NCBI RefSeq assembly: GCF_048403405.1
Contig: NZ_CP183136.1
Source of the DNA: Escherichia coli
Lineage (GTDB): Bacteria; Pseudomonadota; Gammaproteobacteria; Enterobacterales; Enterobacteriaceae
Length of the DNA stretch: 64,000 nt
Direction: 5' to 3' (one strand)
Under the pieces are notes generated by a model that was not told the DNA's origin, made no database searches, and was given only the letters and a program-made list of their open reading frames with translations. Positions 35,873 through 46,065 of this stretch are shown here, piece by piece. The translations under genes were made by a program, and so were the position numbers. Every line of letters begins with the position of its first letter. Position 1 is the first letter of the stretch.

Positions 35873-36082
35873 ATGGCGAAAACAAAACAGGAATGGCTGT
35901 ATCAGTTACGGCGATGTTCATCAGTCAATACGCTGGAAAAAATTATTCATAAAAACAGAGACAGTTTATTAAACAGTGAACGTGAATCATTTAATTCAGC
36001 AGCAGACCACCGGTTAGCGGAATTAATCACCGGAAAGTTATATGACAGGATACCAAAAGAGATATGGAAATATGTAAGGTAA
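35873..36082 (+). CDS. Hypothetical small protein
   Basis: 69-aa ORF with upstream purine-rich stretch; no recognised domain. Confidence 0.45.
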   Translation: MAKTKQEWLYQLRRCSSVNTLEKIIHKNRDSLLNSERESFNSAADHRLAELITGKLYDRIPKEIWKYVR

Positions 36083-36119
36083 TAATTCAGAATAATTAAT
36101 TACCAGGAGCAGATAAACA

Positions 36120-36710
36120 ATGAAGCTGATTATTTTTATTCTCATTGTTCTGATTATTGCAGCGTTACTTATCCGGATTATCCTCAAAAGTGTAAATCAG
36201 CATTCTCCTTTGCTGATGCAGTTGCATGCGGCAGGTATACGGACCGGTGATGCAGAGCGAATACTGTCCGGCGGTGAATACTGGCAACGTCAGAAGACGC
36301 TGCTGACAGAAAGGGAAGTCAGTTTTATGAAAGGACTGTTCAGAATTGTGGATATGAAGCGGTGGTATCTGTGTCCGCAGGTACGGGTCGCGGATATCGT
36401 CCAGCTGAACGGGAATATCCGGCCACGATCACGCCAGTGGTGGCAGTTATTCAGGATGGTGTCTCAGTGGCATGTTGATGTGGTTATCGTTGAGCGGCGT
36501 TCGTTCAGTATTGTTGCAGCAGTAGAGCTGGATGATGCCAGCCATTTACGACCGGAACGCAGACGCCGGGATATTCTTCTGGAAGAGGTTCTGAGGCAGG
36601 CTGGTATTCCGTTGCTCAGAAGCCACGATGCCAGAAAACTGCTGCAGATGACCGGAGAATGGCTGAATACAACAGGAACTGATCAGCAATCACCGGAACA
36701 TCGTAGCTGA
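36120..36710 (+). CDS. Membrane-anchored hypothetical protein, possibly DUF2726 / nuclease-fold-like
   Basis: N-terminal TM helix; C-terminal region with D..E-type acidic motifs (VDVVIVERR); family assignment from recall only. Confidence 0.55.
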   Translation: MKLIIFILIVLIIAALLIRIILKSVNQHSPLLMQLHAAGIRTGDAERILSGGEYWQRQKTLLTEREVSFMKGLFRIVDMKRWYLCPQVRVADIVQLNGNIRPRSRQWWQLFRMVSQWHVDVVIVERRSFSIVAAVELDDASHLRPERRRRDILLEEVLRQAGIPLLRSHDARKLLQMTGEWLNTTGTDQQSPEHRS

Positions 36711-36949
36711 CGCCTTCGCGTTGCTCAGTTGTCCAACCCCGGAAACGGGAAAAAGCAAGTTTTCCCCGCTCCCGGCGTTTCCATAACTGAAAACCATACT
36801 ATTTCACAGTTTAAATCACATTAAACGACAGTAATCCCCGTTGATTTGTGCGCCAACACAGATCTTCGTCACAATTCTCAAGTCGCTGATTTCAAAAAAC
36901 TGTAGTATCCTCTGCGAAACGATCCCTGTTTGAGTATTGAGGAGGCGAG

Positions 36950-37207
36950 ATGTCGCAGACAGAAAATGCAGTGACTTCCTCATCTGGCGCAAAACGAGCA
37001 TACAGAAAGGGTAAACCTTTGAGTGAAGCAGAACGACAGAGAGCAGCTTCTGCGCGCAAACGATCTGTATGTAAAGAGATCAAGGTTTTCGTCAGACCAG
37101 AACTGAAAAACTACCTTACCAGTCTGTGTGCAGAGGAAGGGGTAACTCAGGCAGAGTTGATAGAAAGGCTTATCGAGAAAGAGGCCTGTCACAGGAACAT
37201 GATGTGA
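36950..37207 (+). CDS. copB: CopB (RepA2), transcriptional repressor of repA1
   Basis: 85-aa ORF starting MSQTENAVTSSSGAKRAYRKG..., characteristic of the IncFII replicon. Confidence 0.9.
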   Translation: MSQTENAVTSSSGAKRAYRKGKPLSEAERQRAASARKRSVCKEIKVFVRPELKNYLTSLCAEEGVTQAELIERLIEKEACHRNMM

Positions 37208-37269
37208 TGGGATCACATTCTTGCTAGTTTTTTCTGTCAGTGCTAGATTACTGATCGTTTAAGGAATTT

Positions 37270-37390
37270 TGTGGCTGGCCACGCCGTAAGGTGGCAGGGA
37301 ACTGGTTCTGATGTGGATTTACAGGAGCCAGAAAAGTGAAAACCCCGATAATCTTCAGCAAGTTTGGCGACTAAGAAGAAGATTAACGGG
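37270..37390 (-). ncRNA. copA: CopA antisense RNA region (approximate)
   Basis: Position between copB and tap on the opposite strand as in R1/R100; ends not determined. Confidence 0.35.
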
Positions 37391-37442
37391 GCTAACAAGA
37401 AACCGCATAGAAGCTGTTGCTCTATGCGGGGAGTATAGTTAT

Positions 37443-37517
37443 ATGCCCGGAAAAGTTCAAGACTTCTTTCTGTGCTCACTCCTTCTGTGCAACATAAGTG
37501 CAGGATGGTGTGACTGA
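37443..37517 (+). CDS. tap: Tap (RepA6) leader peptide, translationally coupled to repA1
   Basis: 24-codon [27 protein letters not shown] whose stop overlaps the repA1 GTG start. Confidence 0.7.
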
Positions 37518-38367
37518 TCTTCACCAAACGTATTACCGCCAGGTAAAGAACCCGAATCCGGTGTTTACACCCCGTAAAGGTGCCGGAACGCTGAAGTTCT
37601 GCGAAAAACTGATGGAAAAGGCGGTGGGCTTCACCTCCCGTTTTGACTTCGCCATTCATGTGGCGCATGCCCGTTCGCGTGGTCTGCGTCGACGCATGCC
37701 ACCGGTGCTGCGTCGACGGGCAATTGATGCGCTGCTGCAGGGGCTGTGTTTCCACTATGACCCGCTGGCCAACCGCGTCCAGTGCTCCATCACCACACTG
37801 GCCATTGAGTGCGGACTGGCGACAGAGTCCGGTGCAGGAAAACTCTCCATCACCCGTGCCACCCGGGCCCTGACGTTCCTGTCAGAGCTGGGACTGATTA
37901 CCTACCAGACGGAATATGACCCGCTTATCGGGTGCTACATTCCGACCGACATCACGTTCACACCGGCACTGTTTGCCGCTCTCGATGTGTCTGAGGTGGC
38001 GGTGGCTTCCGCACGCCGCAGTCGTGTGGAATGGGAAAACAGACAGCGCAAGAAGCAGGGACTGGATGCACTGGGCATGGATGAACTGATAGCGAAAGCC
38101 TGGCGTTTTGTTCGTGAGCGTTTTCGCAGTTATCAGACAGAGCTTAAGTCCCGGGGAATAAAGCGTGCCCGTGCGCGTCGTGATGCGGACAGGGAACGTC
38201 AGGATATTGTCACCCTGGTGAAACGGCAGCTGACGCGCGAAATCGCGGAAGGGCGCTTCACTGCCAATCGTGAGGCGGTAAAACGCGAAGTTGAGCGTCG
38301 TGTGAAGGAGCGCATGATTCTGTCACGTAACCGTAATTACAGCCGGCTGGCCACAGCTTCCCCCTGA
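37510..38367 (+). CDS. repA1: RepA1, IncFII replication initiator
   Basis: GTG at 37510 gives [19 protein letters not shown]..., matching IncFII RepA1 along its length. Confidence 0.95.
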
Positions 38368-38399
38368 AAGTGACCTCCTCTGAATAATCCGGCCCGCGC

Positions 38400-38700
38400 T
38401 GGAGGCATTCGCACGCCTGAAGCCCGTCGATGCACAAAAAAACAGCACCACATACAAAAAACAACCTCATCATCCAGCTTCTGGTGCATCCGGCCCCCCC
38501 TGTTTTCGATACAAAACACGCCTCACAGACGGGGAATTTTGCTTATCCACATTAAACTGCAAGGGACTTCCCCATAAGGTTACAACCGTTCATGTCATAA
38601 AGCGCCAGCCGCCAGTCTTACAGGGTGCAATGTATCTTTTAAACACCTGTTTATATCTCCTTTAAACTACTTAATTACATTCATTTAAAAAGAAAACCTA
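38400..38700. other. oriR, vegetative replication origin region (approximate)
   Basis: Perfect DnaA box TTATCCACA at 38543-38551 and AT-rich tract downstream of repA1. Confidence 0.6.
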
Positions 38701-39083
38701 TTCACTGCCTGTCCTGTGGACAGACAGATATGCACCTCCCACCGCAAGCGGCGGGCCCCGACCGGAGCCATTTTAGTTACAACACTCAAATACAAGCACC
38801 GGGAAAACCCCAGTCCAGCGCAGAACTGAAACCACAAAGCCCCTCCTCATAACTGAAAAGCGGCCCCGCCCCGGCCCGAAGGGCCGGAACAGAGTCGCTT
38901 TTAATTATGAATGTTGTAACTACATCATCATCGCTGTCAGTCTTCTGGCTGGAAGTTCTCAGTACACGCTCGTAAGCGGCCCTGACGGCCCGCTAACGCG
39001 GAGATACGCCCCGACTTCGGGTAAACCCTCGTCGGGACCACTCCGACCGCGCACAGAAGCTCTCTCATAGCTGAAAACGGGTA

Positions 39084-39217
39084 TAGTCTGGCAGGGCAAG
39101 GGATGGGTAAGGTGAAATCTATCAATCAGTACCGGCTTACGCCGGGCTTCGGCGGTTTTACTCCGGTATCACATGTAACCACAGCGTGCCGCCTTCCATG
39201 CCGCTGGCGCGGCATAA
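39084..39217. repeat. Copy of a short element (GGTAAGGTGAAA..CAGTACCGGCTTACGCCGG..GCCGCCTTCCATGCCGCTGGCGCGGCATAA) repeated near 47.7 kb in the same orientation
   Basis: Near-identical stretch at 47724-47815 and a diverged copy at 419-494; contains hairpin CCGGCTTACGCCGG. Confidence 0.6.
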
Positions 39218-39433
39218 GCATATGTTGGTGGCTGTGTCTGAAAGGTTATATACTCTGCATAAAACCTGACAACACGCAGATTGCCAGGCAAATGAGCATT
39301 ATGCATCCGGTTATCGCCTGCCTGTGAAACAATATCACCGGGGCGAATATCGATACTCTGACTCGTTATACCCATGCGTGCGGCATCAAAAAACCTGCAA
39401 TTGCCCTTTATTGAATGAAAGGGGGAGTCAATT

Positions 39434-39697
39434 ATGAATAGCACCACACATTACGAAAACGCCAATTTCCTGCGCGAGCTGGCCGAAAGCCTGCCTCGTA
39501 TTTTTCCAGAAGGCAGTACAGACAAGTCTGCACTATTGCAACGCCTCGCTAATGAAGAACTGGCACGGGCGGAATACGACGAACAGATCCGAGCGAAAGT
39601 TGCCGCTGCCCGCGCCGATAAGCGGCCGGGAATGAGTTCCGCGCAACTGCGCCAGCAACTACAGGGACGTTATCAGGAACTGCGCAATGAGTTATGA
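39434..39697 (+). CDS. Type II antitoxin (ParD/RelB-like)
   Basis: 87-aa ORF overlapping by 11 nt the downstream toxin ORF. Confidence 0.65.
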   Translation: MNSTTHYENANFLRELAESLPRIFPEGSTDKSALLQRLANEELARAEYDEQIRAKVAAARADKRPGMSSAQLRQQLQGRYQELRNEL

Positions 39698-39986
39698 AAT
39701 AGAATGGCGACCAGGTGCGATTGAGGATATAACGGCGTTGTTTGAATATCTGGTCGAGAATGCATCTCTTTGGGATGCAAGGAACGTGACAGAGCGTCTG
39801 ATCACTGCAACCGATCGCCTGGCTGATTACCCCAGGCTGTATGAAACGGATGAACGCTATGGTGAAGGGGTTCGCCGTATTAGCTTACTTGGACAGCATG
39901 TACTTTATGAAGTGAATGATGAGGCCAGTCGTGTCAATATCCTGGCGGTTGTAGGCCAGCGTCAGAATCCCCGATTCATTCTTTGA
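39687..39986 (+). CDS. Type II toxin of the RelE/ParE superfamily
   Basis: 99-aa ORF with RelE/ParE-like character, overlapping the upstream antitoxin. Confidence 0.7.
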   Translation: MSYEIEWRPGAIEDITALFEYLVENASLWDARNVTERLITATDRLADYPRLYETDERYGEGVRRISLLGQHVLYEVNDEASRVNILAVVGQRQNPRFIL

Positions 39987-40021
39987 GTGTCCGGCTTGGA
40001 ACTCCATCTTCAGAGAATCGA

Positions 40022-40687
40022 TCAACGTTCTTTAGCTCCTTCCACTAACAGCCGACCTATCTCAAACACCGCAGCTGACCGTCCCGACTTCACCGCTTCG
40101 GCTTTCTGTCCCTCAACAAACCAGTTATTACCGTCCGTTCGGACCAACTCAAACATCCATGACATATCGTAAACGTGTTCCGGGATCAGCGACCCTTCTC
40201 CGGCCAGAATACCCGCCGTTATGGAGTGGTTGCCCCCGTGCACAAAGCCAATACGCCAGGGCAACCACAGGTCAACATAGTGGTTGTTTTTATCTTGCTT
40301 CCACGGCTTCCCCTTATGGGTTCCAATGCGTGAAACGTTATCGATATAGCGTGGTAGGCTCCAAGGCCACGGCAGCACTATGTCGCTTGCCAGCGACAAC
40401 GGATAATCAGCGCCGTTCATCTCACACTCTTTCATCTTTTCGTAAGATTGTATTTGGGTAAGTCCCTTAAAGAAGAACTCCTGCGGGGTCATATCCGGGC
40501 GGGCATCTGTTCCCTCCTCAGCTACCGCCAGCAAGAAATCACTCTGTACTGGCCGCACGATAGCGCGAATGAGATCTGGTAGCGCCTTAACGGGTAGTTT
40601 CTCTGCCACAGAAAGCAGATGATTGAAGCGTTTTTTTTCATTGGCTATAGTTGCTTTATCTTTCTTGTTTCGGTTCCAGAACATCAC
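40022..40687 (-). CDS. Hypothetical protein, 221 aa, no recognised domain
   Basis: Clean ORF convergent with the TA pair, same strand as the mcb operon, separated from mcbG by about 570 bp without ORFs. Confidence 0.5.
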   Translation of the reverse strand: MMFWNRNKKDKATIANEKKRFNHLLSVAEKLPVKALPDLIRAIVRPVQSDFLLAVAEEGTDARPDMTPQEFFFKGLTQIQSYEKMKECEMNGADYPLSLASDIVLPWPWSLPRYIDNVSRIGTHKGKPWKQDKNNHYVDLWLPWRIGFVHGGNHSITAGILAGEGSLIPEHVYDMSWMFELVRTDGNNWFVEGQKAEAVKSGRSAAVFEIGRLLVEGAKER

Positions 40688-45276: not shown

Positions 45277-46065
45277 GTTATCTCTCCAGACAGCTGCAAG
45301 CCTGCCAGTGAATTACCGGCTCTTTACATAAAATACAGGTGATTAAATCAGCGCTAACAGATGACATAAAGTTATCGACATGACTTTTAACCAGTGAAGT
45401 ACCTGTCAACTCCTGAAGTCGCCGTTTTATTAAATGATAGCTGAATCCTCTTTCTGATTCGCCTAAAGCCAATGCTGGTAGTGTCATTTGGTATTTTTTC
45501 AGTAACTGAAGTAAGTTTGCCCAGGACATTTCGTTACGTCTGAAGCTTTTTTCTTCCCTGCTCAGCCATCTATCTATATGACAAAAATGGCAGGGAGTAC
45601 CAAGATCAGGTGAATATACTCCATCTATCCTGAATGACTCCTTTAGGTAGTAGCTTTGGATGAAGGCAACACCAGGGTTACTTTCAAATTTTGAATAGAT
45701 TCTTTTTACAATGTCTGAATGATAGTTTTCGAGATGTAACCAGATTAGTGTTGAATCGCTCACATTAATATTATTATCTTTTATATCAATGATATGAGAA
45801 ACAAAAACACCATCAGATTTCCATTGTTCCCGGGCATTACTGAAAAGATGTGGAACATCGCTTATTATGACTGAGTTTACCCAGAGAGGTGATGTTTTCG
45901 TTTTATTTATCACGCCTGTGGTAATAAGAAACTCTTTGCCCTTGTCTTTATCAATAAGCGATTCGTCCAGTAGTTTATCAAGGAGGTATTCAGAAATAAT
46001 ACCCTGTTTGGATCGTAGGCTTTCGAGTACTTTTTTCATTCCCTCATGTGTAATGTCTACTGAAG

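Follow-up and report, generated by a model that had tools for sequence, protein, structure and literature searches.

The window (the whole stretch of 64,000 nucleotides of Escherichia coli DNA analysed here) carries an IncFII basic replicon of the R1/R100 type. To the right of a DUF2726 gene come copB, the gene for the CopA RNA, tap and repA, and then the origin oriR and a hairpin-rich stretch (Table 1). A DnaA box downstream of repA1 is described in a review of IncFII replicons, and the one found here marks the origin. The sequence at 38690-39216 is present at more than 90% identity in at least 5000 plasmid records and is about 96% identical to the "repA4 region" of R100, which reportedly holds the ter sites and is needed if the plasmid is to be stably maintained. 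The preliminary description of this DNA had found no credible open reading frame (ORF) in the 700 bp or so after oriR, and our analysis agrees, as all ORFs in 38690-39430 have at most 92 amino acids and none gave a Pfam match. A search of 36000-40500 against all Rfam families (E up to 1) returned only CopA and a sub-threshold PK-repZ match, both in the control region and neither in the hairpin-rich stretch. A promoter and terminator scan of 38700-39100 found nothing convincing, its yield being two hairpins, one on the minus strand at 38798-38814 that is specific to the window and one on the plus strand at 39140-39154.

Table 1. Features of the replicon and of the stretch downstream of oriR (positions in the window)
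Feature	Position	Strand	Description
DUF2726 gene	ends 36710		
Motif copy 1	36782-36793	+	3' flank of the DUF2726 gene, upstream of the start of family homology
copB	36950-37207		ORF
CopA RNA	37334-37425	-	Rfam match, 86 bits
tap and repA	up to 38367		ORFs
oriR DnaA box	38543-38551	+	TTATCCACA; anchors the origin to the left of the hairpin-rich stretch
H1	38738-38760	-	small conserved hairpin, CCCACCGC-AAG-CGGCGGG, on the permissive side of terRL
terRL	38770-38792	-	23-bp Ter site, core GAGTGTTGTAACTA; oriented against leftward-moving forks
H2	38846-38911	-	30-pair, minus-biased hairpin between the Ter sites; base pairs terRR positions 1-8 including C6 (predicted)
H2 A/T-GCG stem	38856-38902		
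H2 inner stem	38871-38887		
Motif copy 2	38848-38859	+	CATAACTGAAAA; complement of the 3' arm of minus-strand H2 (T tract and partner of terRR positions 1-6)
terRR	38904-38926	+	23-bp Ter site, ATTATGAATGTTGTAACTACATC; oriented against rightward-moving forks
Candidate primer-start CTG	38960-38962	-	CAG on the plus strand; just 3' of the G-site hairpins; this lineage only
Putative G site	38966-39052	-	nearly invariant structured block; includes the CCCGAC..GTCGGG hairpin
Motif copy 3	39066-39077	+	CATAGCTGAAAA; in a variable stretch after the G site

Divergent relatives were collected by a RepA-based scan of species-representative genomes, which gave 32 loci with RepA proteins 73-97% identical, from Klebsiella, Yersinia, Pantoea, Erwinia, Hafnia, Citrobacter and other genera. 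The 23 loci with an exact terRR core were aligned with the window (n = 24), and an exact-pattern scan with the G-site core added metagenome loci, for a total of 125 unique sequences. All 24 aligned replicons keep the element order H1, terRL, variable spacer, H2, terRR, spacer and invariant block. Measured against the window in 20 divergent loci, identity is 0.92 in the terRR core, 0.86 in the block (38965-39052) and 0.80 in H2, as against 0.40-0.58 in the spacers. The sample also includes IncFII replicons in assemblies labelled as a Lachnospiraceae MAG (L004), Streptomyces morookaense (L006), a Nanosynbacter MAG (L008) and Acinetobacter idrijaensis (L034), which are probably contaminating or mis-binned enterobacterial plasmid contigs.

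Ter sites and the structured block beyond them

The pattern RNRTGTTGTAACTA matches exactly twice in the 64 kb, in inverted orientation, with 0.2 matches expected, and the two matches are terRL and terRR. Taking the core positions and the lock role of GC(6) and T5 from published work, we find that terRR has T5, G6 and all of positions 8-18 in agreement with the consensus G..ATGTTGTAACT. The terRL site, which is conserved among the aligned divergent loci, matches the Ter core except for a G in place of the consensus A at position 8, a base that it shares with R100. Since the G6 end is the blocking face in the lock model, terRL would halt leftward and terRR rightward forks. Reading rightwards from the DnaA box, terRL on the minus strand and terRR on the plus strand are met before the block, the arrangement of a polar pair. 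The same layout is given in a review of plasmid R1, with two ter sites between oriR and the leading-strand start, of which terRL halts the counter-clockwise fork at once and terRR halts the clockwise fork after one round. We see no substantive difference between the sites in the window and terRL/terRR (TerR1/TerR2) of R1 and R100, which are likewise two inverted 23-bp sites between oriR and the leading-strand start, between which forks may enter but from which they may not leave, in a region about 96% identical in R100. Judged from their sequences, both sites would be bound by Tus. A third GTTGTAAC octamer lies inside oriR (38579-38586, minus strand) and is conserved in position in most IncFII-like loci; it lacks the G6/A8/T9 context of a Ter site and may belong to the RepA-binding region.

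On the minus strand of the block beyond terRR, 29 pairs make up the consensus structure, and this strand folds better than its complement in 24 of 24 loci with both RNA and DNA parameters, z-scores against shuffles of the same strand agreeing. Single-sequence DNA folds of 38930-39110 gave no significant gain over shuffles (z = -1.7 and -0.5). R1 and R100 reportedly have a primase-dependent single-strand initiation signal, the G site, and the block resembles it as a structured element on the leading-strand template just past terRR. Because a rightward fork uses the minus strand as the template of its leading strand, we read the block as this G site, a putative primase-dependent start for that strand. 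Away from the primer start, plasmid G sites are not known to resemble those of phages. In the window, in two further loci (L003 and L006) and in R100, the minus strand has TACTG (38959-38963) after the hairpins, as at the annotated primer start of the phage G4 complementary-strand origin; in most divergent IncFII-like replicons the CTG is missing at this place. BLAST shows no similarity to the G4 origin: when 38930-39110 was compared by blastn with 50,697 phage records (E up to 10), all matches were at the level of chance and none was to the G4 oric. The boundaries that we propose for the G site are inferred from conservation, strand bias, background knowledge and the position stated in the R1 review.

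Conserved non-coding sequence (39078-39216, with GTCTGGCAGGG, ATCTATCAA and a CCGGCTnCGCCGG hairpin) extends to about 165 bp past the putative G site and folds without strand bias, and homology with thousands of plasmids stops near 39216. Within it, on the plus strand at 39140-39164, a terminator-like hairpin CGCCGGGCTTCGGCG is followed by GTTTTACTCC, whose T run is not conserved in divergent replicons. Further right, a two-gene cassette on the plus strand (39434-39986) consists of an ORF of 87 aa, whose PaaA2-like match is weak, and, overlapping it, the gene of a 99-aa ParE-family toxin; the cassette is probably a toxin-antitoxin pair of the yacA/yacB type, unlike the pemIK pair at this place in R100.

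A minus-strand hairpin joined to terRR

Both GC hairpins that the preliminary description had singled out are present: CCGGCCC-GAA-GGGCCGG is the inner stem of H2, and CCCGAC..GTCGGG (39010-39036) is one of the G-site hairpins. The smaller hairpin H1 has a conserved G.T pair on the minus strand that becomes an A.C mismatch on the plus strand, has no T tract, and is more stable on the minus strand in 15 of 18 loci folded individually. H2 shows a similar bias. Its plus strand forms two stems separated by a 5x6 internal loop, and on the minus strand this loop closes through G.U pairs to give a single 30-pair stem, with energies of -43 to -47 kcal/mol on the minus and -27 to -32 on the plus strand (z = -6.2 and -4.4, respectively, in the window). 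Over the 24 sequences the stem is 91% paired, with two-sided changes at 11 pairs, compared with 37-56% pairing in slid controls. The mean z with RNA parameters is -5.55 on the minus and -3.14 on the plus strand (minus favoured in 22 of 24 loci), and with DNA parameters only -3.12 and -2.86 (15 of 24). The A4 and T4 runs of H2 are nearly invariant rather than covarying. Beyond the T tract the stem gains nine pairs, 91.6% paired and with double changes at four, in which the complement of CATAAC (CACCAC in divergent loci) is joined to terRR positions 1-8; in the R1/R100 clade, Ter position 7 and its distant partner, as well as neighbouring pairs, have changed together on both sides.

The stem ends at terRR positions 6-8 and includes C6, the base that flips into Tus in the lock of the E. 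coli chromosome. We took the 85-nt piece of minus strand, up to terRR position 6, that would become free as a helicase moved rightwards, and on folding it the predicted mean probability that C6 is paired was 0.53 with DNA and 0.90 with RNA parameters, the partner always being a G at a median distance of about 62 nt. For the C6 of terRL, folded on its own freed strand, the predicted probability was 0.04-0.06. Among 52 representatives differing at more than 8 of 88 positions, terRR positions 6-7 show the most pairing, which has dropped by position 9. The terRR site resembles the chromosomal sites in having T5, G6/C6 and the full 8-18 core that the lock requires. Its C6 strand has a predicted built-in pairing partner in H2, which the C6 of terRL does not. 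We know of no such pairing arrangement for C6 at chromosomal Ter sites.

The distribution of H2 follows that of terRR. In the 125 unique sequences, which are phylogenetically related so that the counts are not independent events, terRR and the H2 sequence motif occur together in 107 and are both absent in 11; terRR occurs without the motif in seven, and the motif never occurs without terRR (0 sequences). Six of the seven sequences with terRR and no H2 motif retain a strong minus-strand hairpin abutting terRR, among them two loci (L048 and L130) in which its A4/T4 runs are swapped for AUCAGCC/GGCUGGU, leaving no U tract. The 11 sequences without terRR include one that retains terRL (L014) and a subfamily without either Ter site. 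The first of these is an Izhakiella locus (L014, 4311-4640) in which H2 and terRR are both deleted and terRL and the G site are kept. In a Salmonella arizonae locus (L030, 4321-4650), H2 and a variant terRR, GATGTAAC, are kept and the G-site core is missing. The subfamily without Ter sites or H2 bears a G site (L061, L083, L103, L105, L108, L118 and L146) and has, in the 170 nt upstream of the G-site pattern, other conserved hairpins, GGCTAACAGCTCGCCTGTTAGCC and CCGGCCACGCCGG, after one that resembles H1.

Two readings of H2 remain. The first is that it acts in RNA, as a Rho-independent terminator for leftward transcripts, with motif copy 2 corresponding to the U run, that would shield oriR and repA from transcription coming in from the variable DNA at the right. 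The minus-strand layout suits such a role, with an A tract, a 14-bp GC-rich stem containing G.U pairs, a 3-nt loop, GCG/CGC and UUUU, and a GC-rich stem flanked by A4 and T4 is what is seen in bidirectional Rho-independent terminators; the energy of the fold (z about -5.5), the strand asymmetry that is strong with RNA and weak with DNA parameters, and the near invariance of the A4/T4 runs point the same way. Terminators of this kind, however, do not explain a stem that runs past the T tract into terRR, since the nine pairs there, some of them covarying, would not be contained in the terminated RNA, nor the loci in which the hairpin persists without a U tract, nor the same strand bias in H1, which has no T tract at all. 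The consensus terminator scan did not call H2, and to its right we found no minus-strand promoter-like site or gene that could make up a transcription unit feeding it. We therefore regard termination of transcription as possible but improbable. The second reading is that H2 is a hairpin of single-stranded minus-strand DNA tied to terRR. It is suggested by the overlap with C6, the co-occurrence with terRR, the survival of the hairpin where the T tract is lost and a strand bias that H2 has in common with H1 and the G site; against it stands the little stability that G.T pairs add in DNA.

Copies of the recurring motif

The preliminary description reported a motif, CATAACTGAAAA, recurring at three places. 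Two of these are exact (36782 and 38848), and the third, at 39066, reads CATAGCTGAAAA with one mismatch, so that within 2.3 kb a single strand carries two exact copies and one near copy; other one-mismatch matches lie at 37098, inside copB, and at the distant position 45835. Recurrence at this level exceeds chance only in part. At least one repeated exact 12-mer arose between 36600 and 39450 in 17.6% of dinucleotide shuffles, and four occurrences of the 8-mer AACTGAAA, one of them inside the copB coding sequence, were reached in 1.4%.

Only copy 2 is conserved. Here ACTGAAAA has 96% identity across the 20 divergent IncFII-like replicons, the conserved form being CAyyACTGAAAAGCG and the divergent loci reading CACCACTGAAAA. 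We attribute this conservation to minus-strand pairing of the copy with the T tract and terRR positions 1-8. In R100, with which the preliminary description had proposed a comparison, copy 2 is part of a hairpin contiguous with terRR; the conserved copy is explained by a known element of a reference replicon, which that description had named as grounds against its own reading. Copy 3, in contrast, has 46% identity in the 20 divergent loci, the level of spacer DNA, and most loci have CGCTTTTAGCGGG in its place. The R100 equivalents of copies 1 and 3 are AATAACTGAAAA and CATGGCTGAAAG, the latter degenerate. Family-wide homology begins near 36848, downstream of copy 1; this copy occurs only where the upstream gene is the same, is gone where another gene precedes copB, and is likely a chance match. 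Copies 1 and 3 are on this evidence best read as chance, lineage-specific resemblances and not as a feature of the family.

It is very unlikely, then, that CATAACTGAAAA is a genuine recognition site for a protein or for primase repeated at three places in the replicon. The closeness of the three copies on one strand, the shuffles for AACTGAAA and the loosely similar contexts of copies 2 and 3 would fit such a site, but a repeated cis-acting motif should have several copies at equivalent places in relatives, and here copy 1 is outside the replicon, copy 3 has decayed even in R100, the repeated exact 12-mer is common in shuffles, and a profile built from the copy-2 element and scanned over 24 loci found no consistent second site. 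The extra AACTGAAA copies may have a weak lineage-specific role, four occurrences being somewhat unusual. The idea of one unexplained recurring motif is not supported, two of its three copies being unconserved look-alikes. The accompanying guess that the stretch holds single-strand initiation signals or terminators was right in kind, except that the terminators are Tus-dependent Ter sites, which the description had missed, and not terminators of transcription. Compared by eye with consensus sequences, the motif did not match binding sites of IHF or DnaA, the Kid cleavage site or the Dam site. The sequence CAGAACTGAAA occurs at 37096-37108, inside the copB coding sequence, and at 38819-38831, in the spacer between the Ter sites, and the CTGAA of the latter is semi-conserved in divergent loci.

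That the stretch encodes a RepA4 protein, as in the older annotation of R100-type plasmids, is scarcely tenable: an ORF does begin at 38730, where relatives have an annotated repA4 and at the same place downstream of the origin as the repA4 ORF of NR1/R100, whose region is the one reported as needed for stable maintenance, but unlike that ORF it is truncated, ending after 40 codons at a TAA inside the motif, and it is no credible gene, as the four small ORFs searched in the stretch had no Pfam match, RefSeq has no gene there in R100 and close relatives, and conservation tracks the Ter sites and stems instead of the reading frame.

A proposed passage across terRR

The stretch at 38700-39100 is very probably the known cis-acting module that follows oriR in R1/R100-type (IncFII) replicons, the "repA4 region", in which the motif is not a repeated signal. 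The homology to R100, the sequences and orientation of the Ter sites, and the conservation, covariation and strand bias of the elements all point to this module, whose content is two Ter sites and a DNA-priming signal, and its biology is already known. The steps of its action are those established for R1 in the literature and in general knowledge, and they are transferred to the window by homology, sequence features and strand bias. RepA and DnaA would open oriR, and DnaB would unwind rightwards, exposing the minus strand as the leading-strand template. Primase would then recognise the folded G site and prime the leading strand. Leftward synthesis would be halted almost immediately by Tus at terRL, and the single rightward fork would circle the plasmid until Tus at terRR halted it just short of its own start.

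Since terRR has oriR on its left and the G site on its right, a helicase loaded at oriR must cross terRR from the blocking face before the G site can be exposed. A conditional anti-lock role of H2 at this step is a doubtful proposal, which we set out as a model. During initiation no leading strand is made, which would leave the excluded minus strand able to fold; H2 would close in the wake of the helicase, pairing C6 and positions 7-8 of terRR with a pre-positioned G, and this pairing would be in competition with C6 flipping into Tus, so that the helicase could pass. When the round ends, the polymerase of the leading strand would copy the minus strand at once, H2 would not form, the lock would close and the fork would stop. 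The model draws support from the stem ending exactly at terRR positions 6-8, from the prediction that the C6 of terRR is paired and that of terRL is not, from the covariation of Ter position 7 with a distant partner, and from the finding that H2 is never seen without terRR among the 125 unique loci. The link between H2 and the C6 of terRR is the only point in this analysis that might be new.

The Ter sites, the putative G site and the hairpins are carried by at least 5000 sequenced plasmids and lack annotation in the matching records that we inspected, where they can now be labelled. H2 deserves notice as a conserved, strand-biased hairpin that is predicted to pair the lock cytosine only of that Ter site which the initiating helicase must cross. 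If its proposed function were true, it would explain how a unidirectional replicon can start across its own terminator, and H2 would be a natural modulator of the Tus-Ter lock.
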